DNA of 64,000 nt, taken from the NCBI GenBank assembly GCA_051294375.1, contig CM119263.1, forward strand, positions 14,090,414 through 14,154,413, in the 5' to 3' direction. A program made the position numbers and the translations under genes. The notes under the pieces were generated by a model. It did not search any database. It saw nothing but the letters and a program-made list of their open reading frames with translations, and was not told the DNA's origin. Positions 1,591-30,367 of the stretch are shown in pieces (the first letter of the stretch is position 1; each line of letters opens with the position of its first letter). The stretch comes from Paraspadella gotoi (lineage: Eukaryota > Animalia > Chaetognatha).

Positions 1591-1922
1591 TTACTAGGAT
1601 TCGTTGAAAGATATAATAAATGTTGTTCATTTAAATGTTCACTTAATAAATTAATTGCAGAAAGTAAAAGTAAAAAAAAGACAATCAAAAAACCACAAAT
1701 TCTTCTCGAAACGATTTCTTCTTTACACTCTCAAGCCGAAGATTTAACAAGTGAGAAATTAAATTAAATTAATTTCAATGTAGTAATTAAAAAGCGTATT
1801 TATACTAAAATCACAAGAAACTAAAAATGTAAAATTTCAGGTAATTCATTGTTTTTGAGCACTCGTCCATCTCCACGGTCGAAACAACTTCACGGATAGC
1901 CGCCACAACAAACCTCTTGACC

Positions 1923-4534
1923 ATGTCACGCGCGGCCTCAGCCCACTCTTCGGGAAATTCGTCTGATGAAGCGACGACTTCTCGAGCCGACGCACTGGGC
2001 GGTACTACCGAGGCCAAAGGATCCCGCGCAGCGAGTTCTGTTGGAAAAAAGTCGAAAAAAAGGGATAAAGAGGCAAAGAAGGTAAGAATTTTTGAGACGT
2101 TCTACCGAACTTTTTAGTGACCTTTTAAATTTCAATCCTAATTCCAAAATGGTGATTTTGTTGGGAGAATCTGAAAGAGAAATAACTAATCTATTTCAAA
2201 ACTTTTCTATTCTTTTGCGTATTTTTGTCATATACTCAGACAAATGTAATTATTCTTGGTTGTTCGTAGTTGTCTTTTTTTGGCTCTCTGTCTAGAAAAG
2301 GAGCAAATGTACATATTATTGCACTCATCATTCGTCTCGTCCTGTCTTTTCAGAGTTTTTGTAAATTCGCTGTAGCAATAGCATGGTAAGGTAATTAGTA
2401 ACACAATATTAAGAATACAAATTAGATGTTGGTTTTCATTGAAATTTCTCTGTTTTATTGCAAAAAATATATGTAAAAGATTATGAGGTGTTTGATTAAA
2501 AACTATTTTGAATAATTTCCTTTTACTTTTTAGGAACTTCAACGAGCTTTGGCAAATGCAAAGATTTGGGAAACAAGGTTGGACGTTTGCGAAAGGTCTC
2601 GGCTAGAGTACAGAACAACGGCAAAGAGGTGATTGTGTGTATAATAAATATGATTATCAGTGGCAAAAATTTTGCGAATAATAATAAAAAAGCTAACATT
2701 ATGTAAACTATAATTTAAATATTTGTACTCTCATAATTTTTTACCCGCGCTTGAATCTCGCTCCCTTCCTCTTTCCGGCAGACTGGTTATGGAGAATGAG
2801 GAGTTACGAGGTCAAATGAAACAGACGGAACACGATACCATTGACGTCATTACTTACCTTAAAAAGGAGGACCAGGACAAAGACGAACAAATATTCAAGC
2901 TCCAGCAGGTACACGCCGCCGAAACTCACATTATTTCATTTTAAAGTATAAGATGTATAATATGAATAACAAGTGCATTTGAAGTAATTTTTTTGTCATT
3001 GGTAATAAATGAGAAATCAAATAATATAAAACTTTCGACAAGGAAATGAAACGCGTGCGCCTGGACGCAAAGCGCGATAAAGCTGAGTTGATAGACTCAT
3101 GCAACCAAAAGATCCTTCGTCTGGAAGAGGAATTGGATCGGAAGTCGCAGGAGTTGGACGTAATGAAGGGAGAGTTGAAGCTGGTCAAGGAGTTCCGAAG
3201 AAAAAGGGCGGCCATGCAGAAAGAGCTCGACGAGATCAAGGTGTGATTAACCTAACTATTTCTGAACAAGAATTGAGGACTGATTGTTCGAACGATCGCT
3301 CCAGGACGCATTCGACACGACCACCAAAGAACACAAGTCTCGTATTCATCGAATGGAGCAGAAGTTTTTCGAGGAGAAAATGCGGCTGCAGCAGGAGGCG
3401 AATCAAAAAATCGCCGAGCTGGCGGAACGCGCTCACAGCGAGGCAATAAAAAACCTCGACGAAACCACAAAAGACGTCTATAAGGGTGAATAACTATTAA
3501 CTAAATATATAGACTAATTTATGAAGAACAGATTTTTGTTCTGATGCAAAAAATTTATTTTTTTTCTTCTGATTGACGGCAGAAAACGTTCGGGCTAACG
3601 AAGCTCTGAGCTACCACATCACTAAAGGTGACGAACTCGATAAATTGAAATCTGCTCTTCTCGAAGAAAACCAGACTTTGAGGGAGGAGAAGGAGATTCA
3701 CAATAAGCTCATCGAAGATCGGGTCAAGCAGGCCAAACAAGACAGGGACACGATTAAGGTGATTAAGATGTCACGAACAAAATATCAAAACGAATAAAGA
3801 AAGGCTCTCGGCAATGAATCAATATGAATTACCGAAGTTGGAAAAATTTGGGTAAATCTCGAAAAAAATCCTTTTTAGGCGTTGCGTGAAAACGTAGAAA
3901 CGTTGGAGCGATCGCTTAATCTCATGGTGCTCGAGTTTGACCGGGACCGCCAAACGTCCTTGGCGGAGGCAGAAAGAAAGATGAAGCTGCAGGGACAAGA
4001 ATGTGAAAGACTTAAGACCCTTCTATCCATTAAGGGGGAGGAGCTTCAACAGGTTGATCCCCCTTTTCTCTGGTTATCAATAAAAGGGCATTTCTATAGG
4101 CTTAAATGTATATATTCTTTGTACTTTTAGATCAAAAGATTAGGAAGAAGGATTCTGCATCAAAGATCCGAAGTTGAAACTTTTTTTCATACCGGTAAAT
4201 ATTTTGAATTATCCAGCTTTGTTAAATAATCAATTGAATAATCATTAATTAATCAATCAATCAATCAGCTTTGGAGGAAGTCCGTCGAGAGATAAAAGCA
4301 AACCAGGCAGTTTATGTTCGAGAGTCTCAACGCATTTACACAACCCGGATGAGAGAAGCGGCGCTTGGGCGCGACTCCTTTCCGCCTGTGAGAACATTTA
4401 CCAAAGGGAACGCCATGACCAGCACCAATACAGTCTTTAAGGATCTGGAGGGTGCAGATGACTTCGATTTAGCAAAGAAAGGTGAATGAAAGTGCAAAGA
4501 AAAGTTTAAGGAAGCCTAAGAAAAAAAAGGAAAA

Positions 4535-4587
<53 letters not shown>

Positions 4588-5266
4588 CAAAAGAAAAAAA
4601 GAAAAAAAGAAAAAAATAAGTAGTAATTTGTAAAAACAAACACAAAAACAAACAAACTTTAAACCAGGTTCGTCTTCGGTAGACGTAGCTGAAATGACTT
4701 GGGAGCAAAAGGAGCGCGTGCTTCGTGCTCTCTTCGCGATGATGAACAGCTCAACAAAGAAACGAAAAACTGCAAGCGAAGATTTCGGCGCTTCGACGTT
4801 GCGTCCGACGCCAGCGTTCCTTGAAGCCACAACGGGGCGACGCCCCATCCCGATCATTGCTGACCCGACGCGGCTGGCAATTGAACCGGCGTCGGCAAGC
4901 GCTTCTACCGACGTCCTATTCGGTGATATTCAGCAAAGCGTCACGTCAAACTTTAGGTTAATATAATTAAAGCTGGCGAGATGCACGAGAGCATTTAAAA
5001 TTCTTTGAATTTGATGATTTTTATTTTTCAGCGATGGAACCACGCCGCGTATTTCCGACGGAACAGCGCGTTTGGAGGCATCTGGTAATGCAGGCGCCAA
5101 CCTCTCGATCTCTGAGACCGGTGTCGGCGTTTTGTCAACGAAGGATGCTGGGCTCTCGAGTGTTTTTCCAACGTCGTTGCCGAAGGCTCTCCCAGAAATT
5201 CAAGTGCCGACCTTGACGACAGAACAAAATCTGGCGATGGCGGCCGGTGGAGAGGCTAATGGCTAA
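1923..5266 (+). CDS. BBOF1: Basal body orientation factor 1 (CCDC176), multi-exon coiled-coil protein
   Basis: Exon from 2534 reads ELQRALANAKIWETRLDVCERSRLEYR; later exons give DVITYLKKEDQDKDEQI, RMEQKFFEEKMRL, HQRSEVETFF and MTWEQKERVLRALFAMMN. GT-AG introns traced. Confidence 0.9.
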
Positions 5267-5422: not shown

Positions 5423-8323
5423 ATGTCGAACAACGGTCGAGGATTTCTCGGGTTTGAGACAGGACATCGACCCGATGAAGTGGAACGACTGGCAAAGAGA
5501 TTTTCCCATGGGGTAAAGACGAATAAGATTCCGCATGCGGACTACGAGAAACTGGAAACAATGCTGTTGGAAAAAAAGGCAAGGCGAAGAAGAATAAATG
5601 CAAGATAAAAAAGATAATAATTTTTAGGATTAATTGAAAAATTGAACCTGTTTTTAAAAATGGCTAAAACCTTAAAAATAAAACTTCAATAATGTTACCC
5701 AAGATGGCAGCAAACCAGAGCGCGCTCAAATTCAAGAAGATGAAGCAGGCCTCTCGTCAGAATCGCGGGTCGGGGTTGCTGCACCAGCACCGGGCCATTT
5801 GGAAGGACGCCTCGCGTCGAATGGCGGAGGAACGAGGGCGCACGGAACGAGATCTAAGGGCGTTTCTTAAGATTGCATGCGACCAAGACTCAGATTCTAA
5901 AATCATTTTCGATTCAATGGATCGAGGAATCGCCGCTTTGGGCGAGGAGCTGAAGGTTGGCAACGTCATAGTAATTGTTTTGTTCTTAATTAGGATTTAA
6001 ATCATCAAGTTGAAATTTTTTAGGTGTTCCGCGATGAGATTGTGTCGCCGCTGTGGTTGCTTCGGGATGAAGCGAAGTCGTGGTCGAAACGCACGGCGGC
6101 TTTGGATGCCAGGGGCGTGGAGGAAATGAAGCCCGAGCGTTTGGGGACTCTTAAGGAAGAGGACGAAGAGGAGGAAAGTGAGCGGAACAAAGAAATCTCG
6201 GTTATTAATGGTGTTAAAACAATAAATTTCTTTTTTTATTTAACTATTCTTTCGTAATTCGCTTCGCAGTTACGGAGGAGGAAAAGCTGTCGTCGTTATT
6301 TTCGTCGTCGTCGAAACGTATTTCGGAAATCTACGATGTCCTCAAAAACGAGGAGGATTCTCTTACTCGTCAACTCCAACGGTTGACCGATGACTTGAAA
6401 GAGGTGAGACAAGATCTCCGCGTTGATTTACTTCCTTCGCTTTTTCAGCCAACGATCCTTTCCAGGTTTTCGATACCGAAGAAATCCGAGAACGGGACAT
6501 CTTGGTCGGATATCCTCTAGAATTAGATCAGTGGTCATGCCCGGCTGAAGAACTCAGGATCGACGCAAGGGAGGAATTCCGCTATATTGGTTTGCTGATT
6601 AGCTTTGTTAGTTTTTTTTTTATTTTTTTTTTTTTTTTTAATTTTTTATTTTTTTAGTCTAATGTCATGTACGATATTTTAATCTTCATTCAGACGAGAT
6701 ATTTATGTCAAAGCTTCGAGAACACGACTCTTACTATGGTGACTTCCGCAAAGCGGCCACCGAATGGTCGGATTCGGATCACGTTACTTTTCTTCTGCTT
6801 CTCGACCAATATCCATCGGGCGTTGCCGAGAACAACGCTGTACTCTTGGCCGACCGCCTGGCGAAGACCTTCCCGGGAAAGACGAGGATGGAAATTGTTA
6901 ATCATCAGAGGTAAGTAGCAACAGATTGCCACCGTGACTCCATGCACATTTTTATCATCTTTATATAATTACATGATTGAAAGCTTGCAGAAACCTGCTA
7001 TTTTATTATCTTGTAAGTGTGATGGAGGCCTTAAACCACCAAAGCCTGTCCAAAGTCAGGGACAAGATAGCTTATTTATTAAATGAATGGATAATTTTTA
7101 TATTGGTTGTACCAATTTCATAATTATTTTCATACTATGTAGCCGGTGCCGAAAAATGGCTCAATATGCGGATAAGAAAGAAAGCATATTCAACGATTGG
7201 AAACGTCACAGAAATGAACTCTTAGAGCAGGTTGTGCTCATTACCTCTTGTTTATTTATTTGTTCCGTTACGGTAATTCTCCATACACCATCGCAGGTTA
7301 AACTGGTATTTGACGAAGCAGTCCAACTGACTGAGCTGGAGAAGGTCGCTGAGGAAGGTCGTCAACTGCAGGACAGAAAATGTCAGGCTTTGATGGAACA
7401 AGTGCAGGAATGGAGAGAGAAAAAAATGGAGGCGTGGCATCTGCAGCAAGTAGCTCTTTCACTGTTTTGGTAGTTATTTTTTTATTAAATTGACTTCCTT
7501 GTTGGTTTTTTATTTACAAAGCAATTGAGCGAGGAGATGCGAAAGCAACGAGAGGAGGCGGCAAAAAAGGATGAAGAAAAGAGGAAGAAAAAGGCGGAAG
7601 AGAATAAACAAAAGATCAACGCGTTTCATCAAGAAAAACAAAAGGAATGTAGTGAATGGATAAAAGATACGCAAAAAAGGTTTGTACCATTTTTGAGGTT
7701 CGTTACCATCGACCGGGTGACCGGGTTAACCTGGGGATGCACCACTCAGGCTGCGAGAACTAGAGTCGGAGTTGACGGCTCAGGCCGAGGTTAACGCGCA
7801 TCGCGTGGAATTTCGCGCCCGAATGTTGGAGGAAAAGAAAGCCGCAGCGCGGCGGCGCGAGGAGGAAGAGGCCGAAGAGCGACGGCGCCGTGAGGCGGCG
7901 CTTGACGCCCTCAGAGCTACCGTTAGCGTCGAAGCAGAAGTCGATCTCACCAGGCTTTACGGGGACACGGCCGCGACAAGAGAAAGATACGGCAAAAACC
8001 CGCAAACATGGTACAAACTAATGACTGTAAAGTATAACTAAAGTAATAATTTTCTATACATGAAAGAAAAATTACAATCTCCTGACAGGGTCAAGGACGA
8101 TGACTACGAAAAAGCCTCTGCCACCCTTCATTGTCACCTATCGGGTCCGCGACTATTTTACACTGACGCTCAGATCCTTTCCGACAAACGCGTGCGCGCG
8201 GAAATGCTTCTCCGCGACGCGGGGGTGCAGTTCGGGGATTACACACGTAATATGATCCGCGGGATAAAACCACCGCAAGAACCCCGTCGAGATCAGCTTC
8301 GTTCCGACATCGATAAAAGTTGA
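5423..8323 (+). CDS. CCDC148: Coiled-coil domain-containing protein 148
   Basis: N-terminal DYEKLETMLLEKK-MAANQSALKFKK...LLHQHRAIW and C-terminal YTDAQILSDKRVRAEMLLRDAG...IKPPQEPRRD match the CCDC148 family. The first intron is GC-AG (5579-5703). Confidence 0.85.
6975..7121 (-). repeat. Dispersed ~150-bp repeat family A (copy in a CCDC148 intron)
   Basis: Reverse complement of 17632-17776; partial copies at ~212-262, ~27643-27664 and ~28341-28440. Confidence 0.8.
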
Positions 8324-8566: not shown

Positions 8567-11500
8567 ATGCTGGTTCCCATTTTTACCCTTAAACTGAACC
8601 ATAAAATCAGCCCCCGCACGGTGGCGGTGGGCAAGTACGACGGGCATAATCCCTGCCTAACGGGGGCAACGACGGCCGGCAAGGTCTTCGTTCACGATCC
8701 ACAAGGGCGCTCGCTGGGAGGCGGAGCCGGGCAAGGCTTGTCCGTCTCAAGACTTGCAAACGCTCCCGGGGAGAACGACCTCAACATGTTGTCGATAAAT
8801 CAAGCCGTTACTGCCGTTGCAACCGGAATTCTTAATCCCGCGGGTAAAAAAATTCGTGTCAATTTATGATGCATAGGTCGCCCTAAAACATATAAAAACC
8901 TACAAGGTACGCCGGGAGAGGCGCTCGTGATTGGCAGTCAAACGAATATCCTCGCTTACGATGTGATGCAAAACTCGGACCTATTCTACAAGGACGTACC
9001 TGACGGAGTTAATGCTTTGCTCGTTGGTTGTCTGGGCAGCATCGAACAACCCATGGCAATCGCAGGAGGAAATTGCTCTTTGCAGGGTTTCGATTATCAG
9101 GTTAAGGAAAAGTCTATATTGGAACAATAAAAGGAGTAATTTTTCTAAAGATTTAAATAAAACTTTTACCCCAGGGCGAAGACGCCTTTTGGACGGTGAC
9201 GGGCGATAACGTTTGCTCTTTGGCATTGAGTGACTTTACGGGGGACGGCCGCTTGGAACTCGTCGTCGGCTCCGAAGACTTTGACATCCGCGTTTTTCGA
9301 GAAGACGAAATCATCGCCGAGATGACAGAGACGGAAGCTATCACATCCCTCTGCGCCATGTGGGGAGCGAGATTCGGATACTCGCTCGCTAACGGCACTG
9401 TCGGAGTCTATGAAAAGAACTCAAGGTAACTATGACTATCAAAAATCTGGAGCTATCGGTTTGTTGAATGTTGATCTATTGGCGCTTTCATTACAAGTGG
9501 AGTTACTCACTGCCGAGTATGCTGTTCACACTTTCAAGAGAACGGTTAAATCAGAAGAATCGGGATTAAGTGGAGATTTTACTGAGGTTTAAATTACAAT
9601 ATATATTAGTAACTTTTAAATATTGTCTTTTCTTCTTTTGCAGGTACTGGCGCATAAAGTCTAAGAACCAACCCGTCTCGATTTTCGCGTTCGACCTTGA
9701 CAACGATGGCGTCCCTGAACTCATCACGGGTTGGTCTTCCGGAAAGATCGACGCACGGAGCGACAGAACTGGGGAAGTTGTGTTTAAAGACAACTTTCCC
9801 AATCCAATCGCCGGTAGTAAATGTTGTTGTTCCTATTTCATTGTATTTTCTTTTCACCTCCTTTCTTTTTTTCTTTTTCTCGTTTTCACCAGGAATTGTG
9901 GAGGGCGACTACCGGTTAGACGGCAACAACGAGTTGATCTGCTGTTCGATCGAGGGTGAGATTCGCGGTTACCTTGCCGCCGCCAAGGAAATTCAAGGAA
10001 ACCTCATGGGCGTCAATTTGGAGCAGGTAATTTAATTGAGAAGTAGACTCGCATTAAAAAAAATTGATTGTTACCGAATACTACTTTAGGACACGGTGCG
10101 TGACCTCTCGAATCGTAAGCAGAACCTCCTCCTTGAACTCCGCAACTACGAAGAAAATCAAAAAGCCGCAGCCATGAGTCCAGGATCCGTTGAGATCGAC
10201 GGCACGCAGCTCGGAATAATTCCCGCCAACACGCAACTGCAGACGGCTATAAATGTCAATTTGGGTAACTATTTTTTGTGGCCTTTTTTTGGGGGGGGGG
10301 GTGACCGGGGGGTGGTCTGGAGAAGTGTTTGAAAACCATAATTTGTTATTCGAGAAAAAAAGTTCCCTTTTATTTTGTTGAATGCATGTTGCAATTTTTG
10401 CATATATCCCTAGGAACAGAAACGCAAAGACCCCACGTCGAATTGACAGTGGCCACGACTAACGAGACTGTCCTGCGCGCGGTACTCATATTCGGCGAAG
10501 GAATTTTTGAGGGGGAATCTCATGTCGTTCACCCAAACATCGCTAACGCCTCCTCTGCGCTCAGAATTCCTATTGTTCCTCCTAAGGTTTTTAAACTTTT
10601 TCTTATCCCAATTTATATTAAATTTTTTGCAATTTTTTTCAGTCTTTTAACAATTTATTGATTGATTGTTTATTTTTCTTTATATTTTAAACATCTCCAG
10701 GACGTTCCAGTTGATCTACATATCAAATCTCTGGTGGGATTCCGTAACAGCACGCAACATCACGTGTTTGAACTCACCCGCCAGCTTCCGCGCTTTTCAA
10801 TGTACGCTCTTTGGAGGCCATCCATTCGTATTCCTTCACTGGAGGCCACTGCTTCAGAAGGCGGCACGCCTGCAGGCGGTGGGAGTGGCCCCCCTGAACC
10901 CAAGGGTAACGTGACTTTCTCCATAAACGAAAGATTGCAGCGTGTCTTATTGTGGGTCAATCAGAACTTTCTCATGGACGAGGATCTCAAGGTTGAGCCA
11001 GGAGGGGCTCTCCAGGCTGTTTTTATTTCCCTGCGAGGCTCTGGGCCACTTTGGATTCGGATGGAAACTAACGGACAGGTTTGTCTCTCTTATAAGTGGC
11101 TCGGAGAAACTTGATTTTTCGAACGTCCTTTACTTTTTGAAGGTGACCGTCAAAACGGACGACATGGATCTCGCCGGAGACGTGGTCAATGCTCTTTCTA
11201 CATTCCTGAATCTAGACGAGCTGCAAGTAAGTACTGCTCTCTGGAGCACCGTGAACCTCCACAAATGCATCTTGCTATGTTGTTCCAGGTGGTGGCCGAT
11301 TTTCCGGCAGAGATGGAGACGCTCCGCGAAGTGCTTGTGAAGGTTGACGATTTCCACTCAGTTCGGCAGAAACTAACAGCGGAGATGGCGGATCACTCCA
11401 ACCTCATCCGCAATCTCGTCGTCCGCGCCGAGGACGCCAGACTTATGGGCGATATGAGGAACATGAAAAAGGGTTATATGGAGCTCTTTGATCTAAATAG

Positions 11501-11823
11501 GTGGGTAATTTAAAGATATCTATATTGCAAATTATATATTTTCAACTAAATATTTTCAACTAAAACTAAATTAAAGTAAATATTTATGTCAGTTTCATTC
11601 TTTTAATTTTTTTTTCAGAGATTTGATAAATGGTTACAAAATCCGTTGCAACAATCACCAACAACTCTTGAATTGCCTCCGCGTTGTTAACCAGACGATT
11701 CAGAAGGCGGGCAATCTGCGCTATGGTCGCTGTAAATCCGCTCTCGTCACCGCTGCCCGCGGGGCCATCAAGGCCAACAACGTCCAACAACTAATTAAAA
11801 TCATTCGCACGGGTGCCGCTTGA
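8567..11823 (+). CDS. BBS2: Bardet-Biedl syndrome 2 protein (BBSome subunit)
   Basis: [26 protein letters not shown]...; RYWRIKSKN; [25 protein letters not shown]; [15 protein letters not shown]; [11 protein letters not shown]. Confidence 0.97.
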
Positions 11824-12183
11824 AAACTACTGGAAAGAGAAGGAAAAGGCAACACCTTTTAACCCTGTCGCAAAATCACATGAAACAACAACAACAAAAT
11901 CTTCTTAGGAAACGATAACTACTTACCCTGTCTCTCTTTAGCACCACACTCGTTAATGCTTAGACTTCTATACCATCGCATTATTTACTCATCGCTCATT
12001 TCGCGTTCTCTTCTTGCGTGGCGTCATCTTTTATTGTAGTTGTTCAACGCTCACCAATCATGTTAATTTATTTAAGAACTAAAATTACGATTAATTGTTT
12101 TTTTTTATTCTCTCGACATTTGTCTTAGTTTTAAAATAATAGGAAATCAATTAACGACAGCTTCACAATAAAAAGAAATTACC

Positions 12184-13170
12184 ATGGATGCCAGCGATCT
12201 TCAGGCCGGTGACAACATCGTTACCGAATTTGCCACCTATGAGGACTTTCTGGACTCTCAGATCACCCAGCTTGATTTGTACTATTTGGAGGACGAAGAG
12301 CTGGCAAGGCAGTTGGTCGAGCTGGGGTATCGAGGCAGCGGCGAGGTTCTTAAAAGGGACGAATTTGAATCGCGAAAGAAGGCCGCCGAAGCTAATCGCC
12401 TTTCTAAGAAGACACAAAAAAAGGTGTAGATCTTTTTTTATCTATTTCTCGTCTTATATTTCTCCCTTTTTTCGCTCATCACTTAACACTCCTTTTTATT
12501 TATAGGCATTAGCCTCGACAGGGAAAGAACTTCGCACCCCTTTTCTTCGTGCTCTGGCCTCGCGTGAGGAGGCGAACCGCAACGGGAAAATGACGTCGAT
12601 CATCTTTGTACGGGATCGCAACTCGCGCGGTCAAGAGATTTCGGGTTACATCGACTTCGCCCATCGCCTCAAGACAGAAGACTTCGAGTCAGTCTTCTCC
12701 GGTCGGAAGCGAATGCTTCCACGGACGACGGACTTAAGCTTTTACAACTGGGAGACGCAGTCTTCAACATCCAACCCCACGCCAAATTATCAAGGTGAGA
12801 GCGATCTACTAATACTTTTTTCAAAATACTCTTTATTGATCGCAGAAAACAAATACGAAATGCATCCTGTAATTTAACGTATCCAGTATGCTTATTTGTT
12901 ATTAACTTATTATAGTATAGCTTAAATTTTCCTTTGTAATTTTTTTAATATTAATTTTGTGAAATAATTGTTTGGCTAACCTGCTTTTATTCTCAAGTAA
13001 TCGCGGAGAACGCGTCTGGTCTTCTTTTCAAAAACAAGCGCGACCGGAAAATTCTCAACGTGGACCCAAAGGCATCTACGCCGGGCGACAACTCAACGCG
13101 CATAGTTGTTGAGAGTCCCGAGTTCGCACAGATCGTTATCTACGACCATATCACTCGAAGGAAAACTTGA
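12184..13170 (+). CDS. CFAP299: Cilia- and flagella-associated protein 299 (C4orf22), 3 exons
   Basis: [38 protein letters not shown]; [19 protein letters not shown]; last exon [17 protein letters not shown]...[10 protein letters not shown] (TGA 13168-13170). Confidence 0.95.
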
Positions 13171-13494
13171 ACATTTTTTAAGTGGAAGTCGCGATTGGGA
13201 GAATCCGACTGTTTGTTTGTCCCATTAAAATCGCGGAAAGAACTTTCGCATCACTATTTAAGTTTTTTTGTAACATTATTTTAATGATATTGATATTTTT
13301 TCTAGGCCCGGATTGGCTTTGAAGATCTTATGTGAAGTTGTTACTATAAGTTAAAACCCGCATTGTAAAGTCATTCTTTCATCATCATAGTAATAATGAC
13401 ATTTTCGTTTTTTTTTAAGTGAAAAGATACTACCATAGAACCTAACTTAGAAAACTGATCGTAGATATTTATTGAAGCCAATCAAAATCACAAA

Positions 13495-16366: not shown

Positions 16367-16430
<64 letters not shown>

Positions 16431-16516
16431 GACAGAGAAACCCGCCACACATCTTGGATCGAGTGAGTGAGTGAGTGAGTGAGTGAGTGAGTGAGTGAGT
16501 GAGTGAGTGAGTGAGT

Positions 16517-16558
<42 letters not shown>

Positions 16559-17491: not shown

Positions 17492-19548
17492 ATGACTGAC
17501 CCAGAAAATAACGATGCATTGTGGGAAGATCGGGAAATACGCTTTGACATCACCCCTGTGCAGGTATGGTTCGAAAAAAATTTTATTAGAATTTTTTATA
17601 CATACTACTTAGTAATTAAAATTGTTTTCATAAAATTGGTACAACCAATATAAAAATTATGCATTCATTTAATAAATAAGCTATCTTACCCCTGACTTTG
17701 GACAGGCGTGGGTGGTTTAAGGCCTCCATCACTCTTACAAGATAATGACAAAGCAGGTCCCTGCAAGCTTTCAATCAAGACTCACAGTTTCGTTTATTCA
17801 CTCCCATAGTACCTGGCTTCCCTATCAATGAAGTGGTATAATATTATTATATCATTATACTAAAACATGAGTATTATACTAAAACATGAGTTTCTAAAAC
17901 TAGGAGGTCGTTGTTAGACGTATTTTGATAATGAATACGATACCACTTTTTGGTTCAGATGAAAATGCGTCCAGGGGAAAGAATGATAGATCGTCTCGAC
18001 TCGGTCGAGGACACGAAAGGGAACAATGGCGACAGAGGACGCCTTCTCGTTACAAATCTTCGAGTCATCTGGCACTCCCACTCCATGCCTAGGGTCAATC
18101 TCTCTATTGGCTACAATTGCGTGCTCAGGCAAGGACACGATGGATATATTTTTCATTTGCAAATTATTCGTTTTTAAATTTTTTTTCATTTTTTTTCAGC
18201 ATCACCACCAAAACGGCTTCGTCTAAGTTACGCGGCGCTACTGAAGGTCTTTACATCCTTACCAAGGTCAACAATACTCGCTTCGAGTTCATCTTCACGA
18301 ATCTCGGTATTTTAGAAAGACCATGGAAATATGTCAGTTTACATTTTTTTAATGATTTTGGCGATTTAGTTCCCGGGACTCCGCGTCTCTTTACTTCGGT
18401 CATCGCCGTTCATCGCGCCTACGAAACCTCAAAACTCTATCGTGAACTCAAGCTCAGGGGCGCAATCGTTCAGAGCAAGCAGTTGCGAATGCTACCACAG
18501 GAACAAGTCTACTCAAAGGTGGGCAGAAGGCAAAATAGTTCTCGCAAAAGGTTTCATAGTCAGTCTCCTTTTATTTTTTCTCTTTTAGGTTAACGGCGTT
18601 TGGAACTTGTCCAGCGACCAGGGAAATCTAGGCACTTTTTTTGTGACTAACGTTCGTCTCGTTTGGCACGCCAACATCAACGAAAATTTTAACGTCTCCA
18701 TCCCGTACCTTCAAGTAAGATTCGCTGTTAGTCCGCCAAGTGTCGCTGTCTACCCCGGGTAATATATTCTTTGTCCTTTTGTTTGTTACTCGCAGATGCG
18801 TTCAGTTAAGCTTCGCGACTCGAAATTCGGTTTGGCGCTCGTCATCGAAACCTCCGCTCAGAGTGGAGCTTATGTCCTCGGTTTCCGGATCGACCCCAGC
18901 GATAGACTCAAGGAGGTGACAGATTATTTCCTTTGGACTTCCTGCTTTATTAATAATAATACCGAGATTTTTAAAAATAATATTTTGAAAACCTAATCAC
19001 AGTTTACCTAGTTTACTAAAACAAACTAAACCCGTCTTACAATTTACTTTTTATTTATTATGATTTATATCTGTATTCTTCAAGGTGGTAAAGGAGATCC
19101 AGTCTCTGCACAAAGTTTACTCTAACTACCCAATATTCGGCGTCGAGTATCAGACGGAAATGCAGACAGAGGGTGATGAGGAGTCTGGGGTTGACCCGAC
19201 CGAGGACGAAGTCGACATAGTCGACGACAGCAGGTGGTTCTATAGTAATGATTATAAAATGATGATTGGCGATATTAATGATAAAGATGAATGAATGTGT
19301 GAAAATTTAAATAGATTTTAACATTTAAGAAATCCTGTAAAAATATATCCTTGGTAACATTCATTATTAATGTTATGTTAATGGCTTTTTAAAGCGAAAC
19401 CGGTGGCAAGACCGACGCGTTCGCAGCCTACTTCGCCGAGGGTCTGCACCAAGCTGACCGCGAAGTTGTCTACTCCGAGGAGCTCGGCCTCGCCATCGAG
19501 AAGCTCAAGGACGGATTCACCCTCAAGGAACTTTGGCAAGTCGTTTGA
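17492..19548 (+). CDS. BBS5: Bardet-Biedl syndrome 5 protein (BBSome subunit)
   Basis: [13 protein letters not shown]; [31 protein letters not shown]; [17 protein letters not shown]; [21 protein letters not shown]. Confidence 0.97.
17632..17776 (+). repeat. Dispersed repeat family A (copy in BBS5 intron 1)
   Basis: ggtacaaccaatataaaaattat..cattcatttaataaataagctatctt...ggcctccatcac...gcaagctttcaatca. Confidence 0.8.
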
Positions 19549-19844
19549 ACAGCGTCTTGTCTAATCTTATTATATTTATTACCAACTTTCTGAAAGGCAT
19601 TTTTTGTTGCAAATTTTTAAATATATTCATTTTGGTTGAGGAGCAAACGTCTTTCATTGTTGAAACTCGAATAATCATGAAATGAAAATTTACGGATACA
19701 TATTACTCAATAAATACAATAATTTAGTTTTTTTTTAAAACCTAAAAGTTAATTCGTTTTGGAATTTTTTTTAGTATTTTTTTAGTATGAAAATCTTAAG
19801 AGGTTGAGAAAAAAAGGTCGTCGCCGCGTTGTCCGCGGTCGACA

Positions 19845-21603
19845 ATGAAGACAACGACGGCGACGACCCAGTCGGCGGGGGCAAAGAAACCCGCTTCCCC
19901 GTCTGTGGATTGTCTGGAGGCCGTCGTCGACGCCCATATCCTCCCTTGGGAGATCAACGTCAAGTGGAACGAAAATGCCCCCATAATCTTAGGTTGGTGA
20001 AGTTATTTTTAGCATTGTAAGATGCCGATTATGTTTATGGTTATGCTACTGACATATCACCACCTTCATGCCGTCAACGTAATTGCATCAAATTTAGCAA
20101 TCCTCGTTTTTAATTTTGTTAAATCAAACTAGGAGAATTTCCGGACCGCCCTCCACGAAAAATGTCGCGTCAGGCGATCCAAAATTCTTTTCGTGTTTTA
20201 AAAATCGCCAATCAAGGCGTTGAAGAGCTCGACAAGACAATTAAATACTTCACGCGGCTGGAGACACTTATACTGACAGCCAATAACCTTCACAAGGTCG
20301 ACTCGCGGTAGGTTATGACAAAATAAAAATCTTTTCTGCAATAAAATTTTTAATATTTTTTGTTGTTTCTTATGTTTTCCGTCTCGTTTCCACCTCAGCC
20401 AACTTCCTCGTTGCCTTGAATTTCTCGAACTTTGCGCCAACGATCTATCTAGTCTCCGCCCACTCTGCCGTCATCCACCTTCCCTGACGCATCTAGGGGT
20501 GGGCTACAACCACATCGGTAGCCTGGAGGGTTGCGTGTCGGCCTCGCTTTGGCCTCGACTTCTTTCTCTCGATCTGTCGCATAATGACCTGGACGATCTC
20601 ATCGACGTCGTCTCCCAGATGACGCTGCTTCCGTCGTTGCGGTCGCTTCTGCTCATTGGGAACCCATTGTCGCTGCCGCCAAGTTATCGTGGTTTCGTGA
20701 TCGACGTCCTAAGGGACCTGTTTATCCTGGACGACCACTTCATCACGTCCGAGGAGAGACACGATTTTGATGGCTTCGGACACAATCCAGAAATTAAGAG
20801 TAAGCTATAGGAAGACGGCGATTCGAATTCTGATCATACATAGTTCAAAATTAACCAGTAATCAGTCTTTCCGAGTATTTCATGATTACTATTAATTTTC
20901 ATTTGACAGATGAACTAAACATAACCTTGGAAGCGATGACGATTCGCGGATTGGCGGCTCCGGTCGAACCCAAGCACGCAGAAGATCAGCCAGAATTTCC
21001 TGTCGTCACCCGCAAATTCGCCGTCTATTTTCTTTTGCCTCTCACACCGGCGGAGGTCATCGAAGCCAAGGCTAGGGCTGCCAGGGTCGAAGCGATGGCC
21101 CTAGCGGCCGAGGCAGTCGACAATCTTCCCCCGCCGGAGGTGACTGTGGTCGAGGAGAACCTGGAATTCCACTCCCCCGCCGTTCCTTTTACCCTAGAGG
21201 GTCATGGATCAATTACTGGCTCCGTTCGGTACCCGGCCGAAGACGCCGCCGCCGTCGAGCCAATGCCGGCCTCCACTCCCCCTAAACCAAAGAAGATCCC
21301 GATGCCGAAAATGGAAGAGGAAATTATCCCCATTCCCGATGGGGTTGGGGAGTACGCCGTCAAACCCGTCAAATCGGTCGCAGTTCCCTGGGCTGAGGAG
21401 ATGGACGTACACTGGAAGCAGAGTCTTCAACGAGGCGATCTTTTGGTCTTTAGAAATTTTTTGCGAGACGGGGTCGACGTTCAGATCGTAGAGGAAAAGG
21501 TTCTGGGTGAGTTTCTTAATTAATTAATAATTATTTTTAAATGTTTTTTCTATCTTTTTCATTTTATTTTTTTCCCTTTTTTTTCTTTTCTTATTCTTCT
21601 TCT

Positions 21604-21643
<40 letters not shown>

Positions 21644-21745
21644 TTTCATGTGAAAAGAAAGTCACTGTGACGCAGCAAATTGGAAGGACCATTCTTGTTT
21701 CAGCCAATCAGAGTCACGAAAATAAAGAAGATCAAAAAAATTCGT

Positions 21746-21837
<92 letters not shown>

Positions 21838-23190
21838 TTTGATGTGAAAATAAAGTCACTGCCACGCAACAAATTGGAAGGACCATTCTTGTTTGTTTTC
21901 CGGTTTCCCCTTCTCGCAAAAATTACAATTCTTTTGAAGTTAGTAACTCAATTTAAACATTTTTTATCCTCTCATATCTGCAGCGTACCCCGCTGACCAA
22001 ATCGAGGGTTTTGAGAGTCGCGGAGAATCAGCCGCTGACGGCGCCCGCAGCGCAGCAAGCAAAGGCGGCGGCGGTGGCGGCGCGAAGTCACGAAACGATG
22101 CTGCGAAGACAAAGGACGCCAAAGCGACCGCAGGCGGATCAGGGGGGGAAGCGAGAAAGAAGAAGAAAGGTAAAGTAAATCATCCTGTGATTAAAAATGA
22201 ACAATGCGTAAACTGAAATACCTTACTGTTATTTCATCAAGAAATATGTCAACATTCTGTTTTAAATAATCGGTAAATAACAAAGGTTTGAAGATGATTC
22301 GGTAAGGCTAAGCTCATTTTAAAAAAAATTGATTTGATTGTTAAAAAATTACAGGTAAAGATGAAAATAAAAATAAAGGTAAAGGTAAAGATAAAGGTAA
22401 AGATAAAGGTAAAGGTAAAGGTAAAGGTAGCGGTAAAGATAAAGGTAAAGGCAAAGGCAAAAAAAAAGGTAAATTTTGCAGGGGAGGGTAAAACAATTAA
22501 TCTTGTTATTCCTTTTGTTCATTTTGAGCTATTTTGAATTTGATTGGAATGAACCTTTATCTTAAAACTACATTAAACCCGTGAATAAATATCCTTTGAC
22601 TAGGTGATGCTGAAGTTGACCTTTTCTCCATGCCACCGGAAGTGACGGTTGTAGCGCGATTTCATGCCAACCTTCGCGACTTCCTTGACGGTGAGCGGGA
22701 CCTGGAGTTCATTTTCAGTCGAGACGGCGGCAACGAGATCGTGACTAAAGTGGATAAGAAGGACAAGGAAAAGGAGGCTAAGGAGGATAAAGACAAGGAG
22801 CCCAAGGACGCAAAAGGCAAGCATGGCGCAAAGACCGCTTCCAAAAAGGATGAGGAGACTCCAGCCGGCGGCAAAAAGGGCGGAAAAGAGGACAAAGCGC
22901 CAGGATCTAAGGGTGCGGCAGATCGTTCTGGTGGAAAATCCTCTGCAACCACTAAAAGCTCCAAGGGGGACAAAGGCGGGAAGGGCGCTGCAGCTGGCGA
23001 CGGGTCGCCGGATGAGGCGGCGGTAACGAGTGCTCCCCCGCCGCTCGAGTGCCACTTCCGGCTCGGCATGGCACGATGGGCCAAGGCCTCGGATTGGGCG
23101 CCCCCAGTTGTAGAAGAGAAGAAGGCAGCGCCCGTTAAAAGTGCCAAGGGGGGGAGACAGAAAAGCGCTGGTGGAAAGAGTGACGCTTAG
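19845..23190 (+). CDS. LRRC43: Leucine-rich repeat-containing protein 43
   Basis: LETLILTANNL...LPRCLEFLELCANDLS...WPRLLSLDLSHNDLDDL...LLIGNPLSLPPSYRGFVIDVL; Lys/Asp-rich C-terminus ending PPPLECHFRL. The start ATG is tentative. Confidence 0.82.
21600..21895 (+). repeat. (TTTC)n tracts with a tandem ~55-bp duplication in an LRRC43 intron
   Basis: atgtgaaaa.aaagtcactg..acgca.caaattggaaggaccattcttgttt at ~21648 and ~21843. Confidence 0.8.
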
Positions 23191-23625
23191 TTTAAATATT
23201 TAGTTTTTTATATGGATTTTTACATTTTTACTTGCAAATACACAATAATCAATGCGATTTTACTCACCCGCGTCTATTGCGGTTTGAACTCGGCTGCGAA
23301 AAACAACGGAGAATAATTTTTAAGATGCTATTTTTTACTATTTTTATTTAATATTTTAAGAACGAAGAAGTCGTTGCCGACTTTGAAAAATAATGTAAAA
23401 CTTGACGAGCCTTTTGCTGTCTACACTAAAGGCTTGAGAATTGAGGCAATTTGTGTCACTTTTACAACCTTATCTTTGTACTACAGTAATTGTAAGTGTA
23501 CTCAAATTAAATATGGATCTCTCACTCATCTTTGAATAATGGAACTTTATGGAATATATTTCTTATCTTTTTTTTTTACAATGGGAATTTTTTTTTACTG
23601 GGAACAGTGTTAAAATAATAACAAC

Positions 23626-25610
23626 ATGCCATCAACTAAGGAGCAGAGAGAAGAAGCTTGGAAAAATTTGGATATTACTCCGGAGGAAGCAGACAGATTC
23701 ACCCAATGTTTCAAGGCAAAATTTATTATCTTCATAGAAATTTTGTATCGACAGTATGGTTATTATACAAATAAATTATAAAAATTTGTATTTTTTTTTA
23801 CCAATAGGACGAGAACTTTCGTAAGCTTTTTCGTGAGTATGCGGAGGAAATCTCCGACCCTGAAAATAAGGCCAAATACGAAATGGAGATCCGACAGTTG
23901 GAGGCCGATAGGGGCGTAGACTGTCAATTTATCGATCCACATCCAGGGTGAGAGCATCGAGCACATTTTGATTTTGATTTCTTTATCTCTTTTTTTTTTA
24001 ATTTTAAACTTCGATATATTTACTTTCTGTTTCGTTGTTATTGTTGTTGTAGTTGTTTAAGTTGCTTATTTTCTCTCTTTCTTTTTTTCTTTCTATCTTT
24101 CTTTCTTTTGTTGTGGATTTATTTTACTTTCACTTTTTTTATCTCGTTTTTTTCTTTGCATTCTCTTTTTTTTTTTGTAATGATTTTTGTCTTTCCTTTC
24201 TTTCATTTTTTTTTCTTTTTGTTTTCTTTTTTCATTAATTTCCATCTCCATTCCTTATCCAAATCTAGCTACGTTCTGAAAACAGTTATGAACGGCGACC
24301 AAAAAATCTTCATCAACGTCGCGGAGAACGATAAAGTGGGGAAACCTTCGTCGCAGACTGGACAGGGAGCCGACGGCAAACGCGGTTTACAATGGAGCAT
24401 TCCTCATTCTTTAGGTCTATAACTCAAAGGATACTGTACAACGTTTGAGTTTTTTTTTTTTTTTTTTTTCGAAAATAATTGAGCAGAGAGGCTCGTCGCT
24501 CTTTCCTTCATATTGAAATTTCTTCCTTAACTCCAGCTCCTGCACGGGATGATTTTGATAAGAACAAAAAGTTGTGTCAAGTCTATGATGTGGTGTTCCA
24601 CCCGGATACTCTTCGTATGGCTTCCAAGAACCGGGCCTTTCGGCAGATGATTGACTCGACGGCCATGGATTCTGTGGAGGAGAGATTCTCCATCAAACTG
24701 GACCGCGCTAACGTGAAGCAGCCCAAAATGAAATACAAAGGAATGCCGCAGGCGGCCGTCATACGCAAAGCGACGGGGCAAAAACCCAAGGAACTTGATC
24801 CCATTCAAGCTGGAGCGTATCCTTCTAATTGGAAGATGCCCAACGAAGACAAGGGTGAGAAATGAGAAATATTAGTGATATAAGTTACATATTGGGTACA
24901 AGATATTATTGATACACTATTATATTTGGTAGTGAAAATTTTCATTTTAACGGTTTTCAGAAGTGAGAATTCATTTAATGTCATTCAATATTAATAATTT
25001 TATATTCCTTTTTTGTCCAATGCTCAATTTTTTTTTGCTCTGCCCCCTAAGAATCTCCACCCGCATCTTTCTCCCCACCTAAAAATTTTCCGGTCGCCCC
25101 TCCTGAGTTCGCCACCCCTAAGTACCAGTTGATCCACCGAAAAAAGTCTGATATGAAAGACTTCACTTACACCTCCTCGCCGGCAAAGGAGATCTGCTCT
25201 ACTCGCCCCGACGAGCTCGTCGTAGAAGTTGAGCTTCCGTTGCTCAAATCTGCCAACGAGCTCAATGTCGACATCGAGGGAGATTCGCTCTTGCTCAAGA
25301 CCGAGCCTAAAGGTGACTATGAGCTGGGAGTAAAGAATGCGTTATGATTTAAAAACTCAGAAGGAAAATGAGGAAAATTATTTTTTAAAAGAGGATTTGT
25401 AAGTTTTTTCTCAAATTGTTTTTTAAAGCTATATTGTTTTAACTTTTATCCTTAGCTGCGAAGTACAAATTGGAACTGAAGCTTCCCTACTTCGTAAACG
25501 AGGATAACGGCAGCGCCAAGTTCGACAAGCAGCGACGGAAATTGACCCTGGTGCTTCCAGTGCTAGAGAGAGTAGAGAGACCAAACACAACAGAGCAAAC
25601 CGAAGACTGA
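23626..25610 (+). CDS. DNAAF2: Dynein axonemal assembly factor 2 (kintoun; PIH1 + CS domains), 6 exons, ~370 aa
   Basis: LDITPEEADRFTQCFK|DENFRKLFREYAEEISDPENKAKYEMEIRQLEADRG; WSIPHSL; YDVVFHPDTLRMA; RPDELVVEVELPLLKSA; YKLELKLPYFVNEDNGSAKFDK. Confidence 0.9.
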
Positions 25611-25756
25611 TAAATAGATCTATAAATATTTAATTTGAAAATTTCTCAAATTTTTTTATACACTTTGTTAACGCAAACTGATTTTGGGTTTCGTATCACA
25701 AATTTTGAGATGGGTATAATTGAAAACGATCCGCTTTTTGGGAGAAACCTTGAAAA

Positions 25757-28700
25757 ATGAACGCAACGCCGAGAAACCAGTCGGCGATGGGCGAGAGCGT
25801 AAACCCGGAAGTGGTTCAAGAGTCGGAATTGGCGGGGAAAGATGGCGTCGAAGCGACCGTGAAAGGCACGGAAGAAGAAGATGATGATGAGAAGTCGTAT
25901 AGTTGGCACTCGATCGATGACGAAGAGGAAGACGGTGAGAACTGTTGAATAGTGATAGTTATCCGATTTCTTGAATACTAAAAAAGATTTGTTGGTGTTA
26001 GACGTCACTGACGAGGAGTTTAACGGCATTCTGACTCCTGTTATGGTCGCGCGCGGCCTGGAACACCTCGCGCGTACGGCTATCGGCGATGCATCTAGCT
26101 TCATTCACCTTAAGCTTCCATCGAAAGGATTAGTCGACATCGGCGTTCTCTTCAAGTACGACCAGCTCCAGCTGGTACATTTAGCTAACAATTCTATCGT
26201 CAGTCTGGAGCCCCTCTCTAACATGCCCCACTTATTGGATATCGACGTGTCCGGAAATTTGCTGGCAGAGGTTCTGGACTTTAAACCTCCCAAGAATCTC
26301 ATGGTCGCCAATTTTTCGCGCAATAAGATCAAGAGAATTCAAGATTTGTCTCAGCATCATTTTCTGCAGGCAAGTAAATTAGAAAAAGACGTATCTAGTT
26401 ATAGTTTTAATTAATGAGGTGAGAGTTTATTTTAAGTTTACAAACAAGGAATTGTATTTTTAAAAAAGGAAATGTTTCGGCTTTAATACAAGTTTGAGCA
26501 AACAATGCCGGATCTGCCCACGATCATTAGCGGAAAGCAGATGATCAGATAACTAATCAATAATTTAATTATTAGTCAATTGATTAATTAATCAATTATT
26601 ACAGTTTGCATTTGCATTTAATACAAAAATAAAAAGCATAATCAAATAGTGAAACAGTTTTTTCATATTTTCAATTTAAACTCATTTCAACTTGGACGAT
26701 TCCATCGAAACTTGATTTCCAGATCAATCGCACACTTTTTTACCCACACTCAAAATTTCAATTAAATCGCCTCATCCACTCATAAGTAATTGCCGTTCAT
26801 TGCTAAGGGGGGGCGGACGGATGGACAGATAGACAGACAGACGACGGACAAACAATTTTTTTTTGACATAATTTATCAGAATTTGATATTAAGACATGAT
26901 CTCAGTGAATGACCGACAAGATTGGGGGGACGGACCGACAAAGGTAATTATAGAGCCGGAATCTTCTGTAAGCAGATCCTGCTAAAAATTCGTTGGTTTT
27001 AAATACGTAGAATTTTCAAACTTGACGAAAAAGAAAAAAATATACAACGATAAAAAATTAAAAAAATAAGTCATATTGCGAACTATCCTTTTTCAGACGT
27101 TAATACTTGACGGTAATGAGATCCGCTTCATCGAGGGGCTTATGTCCTGTCGCCGTCTGGTGGAACTCAGTCTCGCCAACAACAAACTAACCACAATCGA
27201 AAATCTGGATCATCTGCCTATTCATCGCCTGAACCTAAGGGTAATAACTGTTGAGAGATAAAAAAAAACCGCGGTGATTTTCTGTTTTATTAACCCGTAC
27301 GTTTTCTTTTTCTATCACCGTCGCTTCTTGTTTTCTTCTTCTTAACTCTCAAAATATCCCCTCAATCCAGGGAAACCACATCGATGAAATTGAGAACCTT
27401 GAGACGCTGGTAGCGCTGCGCGAGATCGATCTCTCCCACAACCAAATCCGTTCGTTGGATGGGTTGCAAAATCACGATCTTCTCCAAACCATCAACCTGG
27501 AGCAGAACAATGTTGCCGATATGAACGAAATACACCATATCTCATCCTTACCTAATCTGAGGGTCCTCAATCTCCAGGACAACCCCGTGCAGCGACTCAT
27601 GGATTACAGGATGGAAGTCTTGTACCTTATACAAAGGTTGTATATGAAATCAGTACAACCAATATTTATTTATAAGTTAATTACGTCCATTTACATCTAA
27701 GATTTTATTTTTTTTTACACTGAGCGAACATTTTGTAAACAGATTGACGCATTTGGATAAGCAAAGGGCATCGACCCAGGAAAAGGTAGCAGCTTTCAAT
27801 TTGTTCAAACCTCCACCGGAGGTTATTGCCGCTCAGGACCACGCCAGGAACCTCATGTATCAGTTCATGCAACCGTCGAAGGTTGGTGAAATAAAAAAAA
27901 AACTGTGCTCCGTATCTTTTCCCTACTCTGCCCGTTATCTAGGTCCTGGAATCGACGCTGCCCAGCCTGGAAACGCCATTCCCCATGCTCGTCCTTGTCG
28001 GACCAAACGGTTCCGGTTCATTCCAGATGGCTCGACGCCTCGCCAAAGACTTTGGGGAGTATTTCCGGTACGCGCCGCCTCAATCTACTGCGCCACCGCA
28101 GATGTACGAAAACAATCTTGGCGACGACCATCTCGGCTACAGGAACGACGCTGAGTTCGATGCTGATGTTAAAGGAGGAAAGTTTTTAATGACGTGAGTT
28201 TAAGGAAAGGAAGAATAAGGAAACACTATAAGAAAAAATTTGAGGTGCGATAAAGATTACAAGGGAGTGGTCGTTTTATACAATTATGCCACTTCATTGA
28301 TTGGTAAGAGAGAATAAACGAGATTCTGAGAGAGTCTTTATGGAAAGCTTGCAGTGACCTGCTGTGTCATTATCTTGTAAGTCAGGGGCAAGATAGCTAA
28401 TTTTTTTAATGGATGGATAATTTTGTATTGGTTGTATCATTGATTATATAAGTAGATTAACCAATTAGCAAATCACTTGTTCACCTACTTTTACCATATT
28501 TTGCTCTATTGGCTTTTTTTAACAATTTTGTGAGGATTTTGACTTGATTTTATCGCCATTCCAATATTCCCTCGATTCTCCAATCCCCCAAGGTATTCGG
28601 TTCACAACAACCTTTTTGGCCTTCTCTCCTCGTCGCTGGAGGAATGTGCTGTAGAGGGTTTAGCATGTGTCACAGTTATGGAGCTGGAGGGTGTTCTCTC

Positions 28701-30081
28701 GCTTAAGAATTCGCACCATCGCCCGCGTTATGTCCTTCTACTCCCACTGGACCCGTTGGAGCACGCGAGGAGATTGCGCGAGCGAGGATGTATCACTCAG
28801 GAGCAGATCGAATTCGAGCAGGAGCGCGTCGGCTTATATGCGCGCTACAATCGAGAGCGGCCGGGATTTTTTGATCGCGTCCTAGACACAACGAATGTGA
28901 GGGAGGCTTACAAGGAGTTGGGAATCACGGTTATGGAGTATTTAGGTATCGGAAGTGCGCGAGAGGAAAGGGAGGAGTTGGAAGAGGATGAGATATTTAG
29001 AGAAGAGGTGGCAAAAGCGTCCAGAAAAAGTCGTGGCGTAAATCTCTTGGGTAAGTTTATTTTTTAGCTTATATCCATCTGCACGTTTTGTATAAGGGAT
29101 TTATGACGCACGGCTTCAAAATTTCACTAATTAAAGCTGTAGTCAATTGCACCGGTTTATCAAAATCCACAATTAAACCATTAATATATAAATTAAAAAA
29201 ATATAAATTGCACGTTATAAAACAATTACGCACGATTTTTTTACCGCACGGTTTTTTTATTTCACATATTTTACGAACACTCCAGAAAACAAAAAAGGGA
29301 AAACCAATTGTATACACAACACCGTCTTTGTTCATTTGTTTGGGATTCTTACCCGCCGCCGACGTTCCCGCAGGTAGCGCGCTCTCCGACCGTCCTGACG
29401 GAGAGTTCACAATGACGTCTTCCTACCGCGATGCGGCTGCCCTCTACACACCGCTAGACGGCGTCGAAGCTGCTTCTTTCTGGCGCCGAACGGCTTCTGC
29501 CAAAGAAGTTGTCGCTGGAAAACTTGGCTCACCCCACCAGCACCGCTTCAAGGTTCCGGCAACCGCACCGAGCAGACGAGGCGGAAGTGATGATTCATCT
29601 TCGATGTCCGGGGAAAGCGGGGGCAACACAGAACATTCCACCGCCCCAAGGTATTTCTCGACACAGGATAACAGTGTCGACGCCGGAGGGAAGAATCGAC
29701 TCGAAGCGATAACCGGAATTGAATTAGAAACGTCTAACGTCAATAGGTGAGGACTGTGGAACTTATGGAAAGTAACTGAGTAGCAATATGATCAATTAAT
29801 ACAATTATGCTATTTATTGAATCAGAGTTCAGTCTTCTTCGGTCTCTGCATTACCTCCAATAATGAAGAGCTGGGTGAGACAAGGCCCTGCAACCCCATC
29901 AGATACTCCGCGCTTAAATCTTCAGGGATCCTCACTTTCCCGGTCTATTCCGCCCGGGGAAACCAAGAATGAACGCGGCTCTTCCCGTTTCCGTCACAAA
30001 GCTGGCGCTTCAAACGTTTACAAGTCGGCCCCCACGGCTAGATTGGCGCCATCTTCTCTTCCGTCCATCGTTCGTCAATGA
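25757..30081 (+). CDS. LRGUK: Leucine-rich repeat and guanylate kinase domain-containing protein
   Basis: N-terminal LRRs (LQLVHLANNSI, LDFKPPKNL, LILDGNEI), EKVAAFNLFKPPPEVIAAQDH, then a GK-like domain (MLVLVGPNGSG; MELEGVLSLKNSHHRPRYVLLLP). Confidence 0.9.
26488..26985 (+). repeat. Dispersed ~500-700-bp repeat family B (copy in an LRGUK intron)
   Basis: The ends acaagtttgagcaaacaatg..gatct and ccgacaaag..aattatagag recur reverse-complemented at 34435-35170. Confidence 0.75.
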
Positions 30082-30367
30082 ATAAGTTTAATAATAAGTT
30101 TCAGTTTGAACTGTAGCCTATTTCGTCCCTTCTTGTCATTTTTTATTTTTTAAGCGATTGTTTTTCCTTACAAACATATGACTAGCCTTTTTCTTTCTTG
30201 TCAGACGTGAATAAAGCCATTGCCTTGCACTTGTGAACATGCAAAATCAGCGCTTAGCTCTTCTGATGAAGTTTAACGTTTATCATTAAACTTCTCTTCT
30301 GCAGCACCGGTTTCGCCAACTAACTTGATTTTATAAAACCTTTAGTGTTTGAATATTCTAAAAAAAT

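Follow-up and report, generated by a model that had tools for sequence, protein, structure and literature searches.

Spliced-leader junctions in a run of ten co-oriented, mostly ciliary genes of the chaetognath Paraspadella gotoi

Results

The 64,000-nucleotide (nt) stretch of the Paraspadella gotoi genome analyzed here (contig CM119263.1, positions 14,090,414 to 14,154,413; hereafter the window) is intron-rich animal DNA in which eleven exon groups, from 342 to ~31,600, all lie on the + strand. Assembled RNA contigs contained two leader junctions in this cluster, introns removed by cis-splicing, and unspliced read-through of spacers between genes. AG 19774 carried the end of the known chaetognath spliced leader (SL) 1, and AG 12128 a second leader, which is SL-like. 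We consider, with a probability of about 0.75, that the ten mostly ciliary, co-oriented genes constitute one (or two or three adjoining) polycistronic unit(s) resolved by SL trans-splicing; the balance tips modestly toward all ten forming a single unit.

SL1 at AG 19774

19773..19774, + strand: SL1 trans-splice acceptor AG, with a 20-nt loose contig end before 19775

The contigs of run X1 were placed on positions 1-20000 (together with those of run X2) and 8000-26470, and the RNA evidence consists of contigs of one run from one study. X1 contained 59% of the sampled words of 8500-18400, for which 54% was expected from exons and 68% from exons plus spacers. Among the 15 joints listed of 59, 14 were of the GT..AG type and the remaining one fits a GC-AG intron. 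X1 was judged to represent spliced RNA because its contigs skip introns at GT..AG joints. The loose ends listed comprised six X1 entries of 195 for 1-20000 (both runs) and six of 14 for 8000-26470 (X1). From run X2 (share of 0.07) came 11 pieces, short and of low depth, with no leader among the loose ends listed.

In an X1 contig, a foreign 20-nt piece, CTTTTATTTGCTTAATTAAA, was joined exactly after AG 19774, ahead of a leucine-rich repeat (LRR) gene. The piece is identical (20/20) to the last 20 nt of the chaetognath leader SL1 as given in Table 3 of PMC2481426, and it is absent from the 64-kb window, where the best match covers 15 of 20 positions. As the exact 3′ end of SL1 sits directly after the AG, SL trans-splicing occurs at 19774. 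The same match agrees with a chaetognath origin of the window. The 20 nt of leader and 11 nt of the gene make up one 31-mer, and SL1 was probably cut to 20 nt as expected in a 31-mer graph for a leader common to many mRNAs; SL1 occurs on unrelated mRNAs in chaetognaths (PMC2481426). The start codon of the LRR gene (19845) is preceded by a six-codon upstream open reading frame (uORF) at 19787-19807, 12 nt past the SL1 acceptor, and a second U-rich AG lies at 19785.

A 42-nt SL-like leader at AG 12128

12127..12128, + strand: acceptor AG taking a foreign 42-nt SL-like leader; the upstream contig ends at 12127

Among the loose ends listed, the cluster carried two different leaders, each at one site. 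The second, a 42-nt piece whose last 30 nt are GTCACCATGGCATCAAAGGGCTTGTTTAAA, stands before 12129, exactly after the AG and ahead of the CFAP299-like gene. It belongs to a record of 1047 nt, consisting of the 42 nt and three CFAP299 exon blocks of 295, 289, and 421 nt spanning 12129 to 13418, and it is not in the 64-kb window (best match 19 of 30). Compared with Table 3 of PMC2481426, it shares its last 10 nt with SL3.1 and SL3.2 and its last nine with the SL2 and SL4 forms; its middle is unlike all 25 forms, and its length of 42 nt compares with 33-36 nt. Of the last 11 positions, 9 are identical between the two leaders of the cluster, a level of agreement found in 8 of 10,756 intron 20-mers. 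The ends of chaetognath SLs are conserved, with a 5′ GGAAGC and a 3′ TTAAA; the known part of the 42-nt leader is its last 30 nt, which has this 3′ end. We regard this leader as SL-like and trans-splicing at 12128 as near-shown. Its preservation whole in one contig suggests that it has few target mRNAs.

The leader contains GTCACCATGGCATC, an X-box-like palindrome one mismatch away from the consensus patterns that we assumed; with the loosest of the five patterns tried and at most one mismatch, 63 of 20,000 shuffles did as well. Its ATG would open a nine-codon uORF at the 12128 junction. In a post hoc observation, the frame from this ATG would reach a stop within two codons if the leader were joined at 5 of the 14 candidate AGs (those followed by 12129, 13420, 17490, 23608, and 30205). 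The known 30 nt found no match in metagenome contigs or in a literature search, Rfam gave no match in the window, and the supplements of PMC2566580 that were searched gave no SL match. Three SLs are reported for P. gotoi, one of which was not shared with other species by the methods of that study (PMC12460157). The 42-nt leader may be one of these three, whose sequences are absent from the parts of PMC12460157 searched.

Genes of the cluster

342..1590, + strand: TMEM237 gene, two exons (Pfam PF15383, E=5e-20)
1923..5266, + strand: BBOF1/CCDC176-like coiled-coil gene (Pfam DUF4515, E=4e-4, below the cut-off; open 636-amino-acid model)
5423..8323, + strand: coiled-coil gene (open model)
8567..11823, + strand: BBS2 gene (Pfam BBS2_N, BBS2_pf, BBS2_GAE, BBS2_hp)
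12184..13170, + strand: DUF4464 gene, CFAP299-like (Pfam PF14713, E=2e-38)
13495..16828, + strand: EFHC1/DM10 gene (Pfam DM10, E=3e-23; RNA joints)
17492..19548, + strand: BBS5 gene (Pfam PF07289, E=5e-25; RNA joints)
19845..23190, + strand: LRR gene, LRRC43-like (Pfam LRR_8/LRR_4/LRR_9; open model, frames)
23626..25610, + strand: kintoun/DNAAF2 gene (Pfam PIH1, PIH1_CS; the PIH1 exon has 'protein kintoun' as its named relatives)
25757..30081, + strand: LRR and guanylate-kinase gene, LRGUK-like (Pfam LRR_4, Guanylate_kin, E=3e-5)
30368..31600 (end approximate), + strand: eleventh exon-like unit

The Pfam search was run on single exons. The names BBOF1, CCDC148, CFAP299, EFHC1, LRRC43, and LRGUK, together with their ciliary roles, are ones that we presume and attached to the domains found. 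For the gene at 5423..8323, which had no match in Pfam, the homologue search, or Atlas, a CCDC148-like identity is our assumption. The eleventh unit had no Pfam match, no usable Atlas match, and no clean long frame, and it may encode a small ciliary protein or be non-coding. The kintoun protein is short (~370 amino acids); seven relatives have 352-375 amino acids versus 661-959 for the named ones. GC-AG introns were noted at 18129-18199 in the BBS5 model, where one fits an RNA joint, and at 23716-23807 in the kintoun model.

From stop codon to ATG, the spacers measure, in order, 332, 156, 243, 360, 324, 663, 296, 435, 146, and 286 nt. Ten gaps of 146-663 nt between genes of one orientation (+) are as short as is expected of an operon. 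The introns within the cluster have a median of 105 nt and a maximum of 727 nt.

RNA contigs at gene boundaries

16829..17491, + strand: EFHC1-BBS5 spacer, read through unspliced including AG 17489 (piece 16692-17560 of a 3715-nt record)

Neither single transcripts nor RNA ends can be read from assembled contigs, whose evidence on gene boundaries is a hint. A spliced contig likewise crossed the kintoun-LRGUK spacer unspliced (piece 25454-25933). A contig from the last BBS2 exon reached 12127 (piece 11617-12127) and one from the last CFAP299 exon reached 13418 (piece 12993-13418), each position being the A of an AG. With regard to a polycistronic precursor, the contigs, which do not prove single molecules, bridged two spacers fully and reached the acceptor in two more. 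The stops at 12127 and 13418 hint that, as in operons of chaetognaths and Ciona, the poly(A) site may abut the acceptor. The 50 nt preceding each of 12128, 13419, and 19774 contain neither AATAAA nor ATTAAA. Contig depth was higher near 12.0 kb; this was not used, as contig depth cannot rank expression.

Candidate acceptors at other genes

13418..13419, + strand: likely SL acceptor of EFHC1; the upstream contig stops at 13418; 13 T in the 16 nt before the AG; no leader among the loose ends listed
23606..23607, + strand: candidate SL acceptor of kintoun; motif present; contig 22602-23577 ends 30 nt earlier

The original prediction, made from the sequence, had proposed that U-rich AGs shortly before the start codons of the cluster are SL acceptors. 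Its trans-splicing inference is a correct rediscovery of a known chaetognath mechanism, and the leaders at 19774 and 12128 bear it out; most of the sites that it named are unproven. All seven quoted motifs are present, ending at 322, 1840, 5370, 13419, 17489, 23607, and 30204, but the leader-carrying AGs, 12128 and 19774, were not in that list, and the six listed AGs covered by contigs had no leader among the loose ends listed. AG 13419 gained indirect support from the contig stop at 13418, and for 322, 5370, and 23607 there was likewise no leader among the loose ends listed. AG 17489 is read through unspliced in a contig. The contig that ends at 23577 does so in a run of T, and this end was left out of the boundary evidence. 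The loose ends at 17209, 17628, and 17743, which are repeat-linked and do not follow an AG, were rejected as leaders, as was that at 26369, which is the next exon.

It had also been suggested that some of the AGs end introns in the 5′ untranslated region (UTR). This may hold for AG 1840, which could close an ordinary 90-nt 5′-UTR intron with a median-strength donor at 1751. A stronger AG precedes this donor at 1735, and AG 1840 is followed directly by a strong donor at 1841; this arrangement suggests a 15-nt leader exon plus a 5′-UTR intron, or a recursive-splice-like site. The donor proposed for kintoun found no support: GTAAGT does begin at 23492 as described, but it scores below all 66 real donors of the cluster and is unspliced in X1 (piece 22602-23577). 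Upstream of the eleventh unit, AG 30304 appears to be a better candidate than AG 30204, because an AATAAA lies at 30210, just downstream of the latter.

The U-count, defined as the number of T in the 16 nt before an AG, was determined for the best AG within 100 nt of each ATG and compared with 2000 dinucleotide shuffles. Its mean over 11 spacers was 9.55 versus 7.45 after shuffling, and no shuffle (0/2000) reached 9.55; seven of the 11 spacers had a U-count of at least 9, where 3.6 were expected (p=0.024). Between 5 and 8 of the 11 reverse complements also reached 9. The AGs had been called unpaired, and 11 of 12 candidates indeed have no donor-like GT upstream in the spacer (donor-like meaning a score of at least the lower quartile of the 66 real donors), the exception being AG 1840, but donors in spacers are not significantly depleted relative to shuffles (2 vs 4.0, p=0.24). 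All three RNA-supported acceptors have a T after the AG, compared with 3 of 66 cis acceptors.

Discussion

Weighing the polycistronic interpretation

If the ten genes form polycistronic units, the cluster would be transcribed polycistronically and its introns cis-spliced, an SL would be added at U-rich AGs that lack a donor, upstream 3′ ends would form at or beside the acceptor AGs, and resolution would be incomplete at some boundaries. Several results weigh against this interpretation. A leader was seen at only two of the ten internal gene starts, with one more hinted, among the loose ends listed, and contigs that bridge two genes prove no single molecule. Monocistronic chaetognath genes are SL-spliced as well (PMC12460157), and a leader alone is no proof of an operon. 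The original prediction rightly gave spacers of 146-156 nt, which leave little room for a promoter; the 435- and 663-nt spacers, however, contain AATAAA/ATTAAA and have room for promoters of their own. The 146-nt kintoun-LRGUK spacer (25611..25756, + strand) has no good acceptor, and three of the ten gene names are presumed or come from weak matches. Windows from intron interiors reached a U-count of 9 in 40% (100-nt windows) to 59% (170-nt windows) of cases, in line with the earlier caution that such motifs are common in AT-rich DNA. A weight matrix built from the 66 cis acceptors of the cluster showed no enrichment in the spacers (p=0.63 and 0.82); it also gave low ranks to both leader-carrying acceptors and failed as a predictor. 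Acceptors cannot be picked from sequence alone, because the U-enrichment is modest, intron interiors equal it, the matrix gives a null result, and the scarcity of donors is not significant.

These equally U-rich intron interiors, and the upstream donor of AG 1840, would be expected if the AGs were chance occurrences in AT-rich DNA or the ends of 5′-UTR introns, with no trans-splicing at all. Such a reading is hardly credible for the cluster: provided that the contig is genuine, the exact SL1 end refutes it at AG 19774, and it is tenable for single sites only. The genes might instead be clustered but separately transcribed from tiny promoters, several of them trans-spliced as monocistrons, with the bridging contigs reflecting overlapping UTRs or read-through. 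The poly(A) hexamers in the spacers of 435-663 nt agree with this, as does the inability of contigs to prove single molecules, and non-operonic genes outnumber operonic ones among the trans-spliced genes of P. gotoi (6,457 vs 3,740; Extended Data Fig. 7f of PMC12460157). We nevertheless think separate promoters unlikely given the spacers of 146 and 156 nt and the contigs that extend to the next acceptor (12127 and 13418), where no room is left for an outron and a promoter. X-boxes, sought with 14-bp patterns of our assumed consensus and at most one mismatch, occurred in none of the stop-to-ATG spacers, which also speaks against separate promoters.

The nature of the 42-nt leader has to be weighed on its own. 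It could be a cis-spliced first exon that lies beyond the window, >12 kb upstream, and skips four genes to reach CFAP299; such an exon would perhaps descend from an SL gene and carry an RFX site. All 42 nt are kept in one contig, unlike the truncated SL1, which suggests that the leader is not widely shared in the assembly, and its length exceeds the 33-36 nt of the SLs in Table 3 of PMC2481426. Human X-boxes lie within 500 bp on either side of start sites, and a palindrome of this kind is present in the leader, although its value is lowered by the five motif patterns tried. The last 10 nt shared with SL3.1/3.2 and the last nine shared with SL2/SL4 forms (PMC2481426) argue against a cis-spliced exon, as do the short introns of the cluster, and we regard this origin as possible but doubtful. 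More speculatively, at least ten ciliary genes, unlinked elsewhere, may have been gathered into a cilium operon with its own SL-derived 42-nt X-box exon, supplied by a cilia-specific SL RNA or by a captured SL gene serving as a shared first exon. We consider this improbable; if true, one RFX switch would control both the transcription and the resolution of a gene set for the BBSome, transition zone, and axoneme.

Comparison with known operons

In P. gotoi, 10,197 of 21,072 genes are trans-spliced and 18% are operonic; the longest operon reported has nine genes (ribosomal, ubiquitin, and proteasome), no operon-specific leader was found, and finely regulated genes are stated to be excluded from chaetognath operons (PMC12460157). 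The cluster shares with the operons of Spadella cephaloptera (PMC2481426) and P. gotoi (PMC12460157) SL1, leader ends in TTAAA, co-oriented genes, short gaps, and, as far as contig ends hint, a poly(A) site nearly touching the acceptor, the two being three bases apart in the RPS14-PCNA operon of Spadella. It differs from the reported chaetognath operons in having ten genes instead of nine and ciliary instead of ribosomal or proteasome functions (PMC12460157), and its 42-nt leader is not one of the 25 forms that Table 3 of PMC2481426 gives.

Operons of Ciona intestinalis without intercistronic DNA and SL1-type operons of Caenorhabditis elegans similarly form the upstream 3′ end at the acceptor AG, for the most part lack AATAAA, and yield unresolved dicistronic cDNAs (PMC1488885). 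All 19 Ciona operons examined (19/19) lacked intercistronic bases; ends located 2-6 nt ahead of the AG also occur. Both types differ from the cluster in being mostly dicistronic with a single, unrelated SL, and the 3′ ends of the cluster are hinted at by contig ends only. SL2 operons of C. elegans have intercistronic regions of ~100 nt and the dedicated SL2 (PMC1488885), to which the 42-nt leader would be a parallel if it proved operon- or tissue-specific.

The literature search found no ciliary operon, and the supplementary table of PMC12460157, which lay outside the search, may list the cluster. SL splicing and operons are known in chaetognaths; the ten-gene, mostly ciliary run and the second leader were not found in print. 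Among the 80 loci retained of 140 in other organisms related to exon 1 of CFAP299, 0/80 carry another gene of the cluster, only 25 loci being at least 5 kb long. In none of these 80 relatives do the 400 nt upstream contain an SL-like end, and all are distant at the DNA level, the best having 85% identity over 93 nt.

Neighboring genes and repeats

Downstream of the cluster lie a spastin-like AAA gene (- strand) and then frizzled-4, whose nearest named relatives are from spiralians at ~64% identity; two other relatives reach 87% and 81%. An exact match to our assumed X-box consensus at 57612-57625, in the region of the first exon of frizzled-4, is probably due to chance. A short dispersed repeat resembling a miniature inverted-repeat transposable element occurs in introns and upstream DNA at 204-290, 6974-7121, 17622-17810, and 28340-28440; the copies are 86-92% alike, and very many X1 contigs match them. 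In X1, 11615 is joined to 17633 with 8 nt intervening, which possibly reflects a polymorphic copy of this repeat in the last BBS2 intron. A second dispersed repeat is present as an inverted pair at 26668-26799 and 34741-34872 (84% over 132 nt).

Implications

Animal operons are usually described as runs of housekeeping or germline genes with loose functional links. Ten adjoining genes serving a single organelle would amount to an animal counterpart of the functional operons of bacteria, and the cluster would allow a test of selection for co-regulation in animal operons. The reported bias toward the germline could be reconciled with a ciliary operon by expression in the sperm flagellum. If dedicated, a second leader would parallel SL2 of nematodes, and position in the cluster would flag the members without an identity as candidate ciliary genes.

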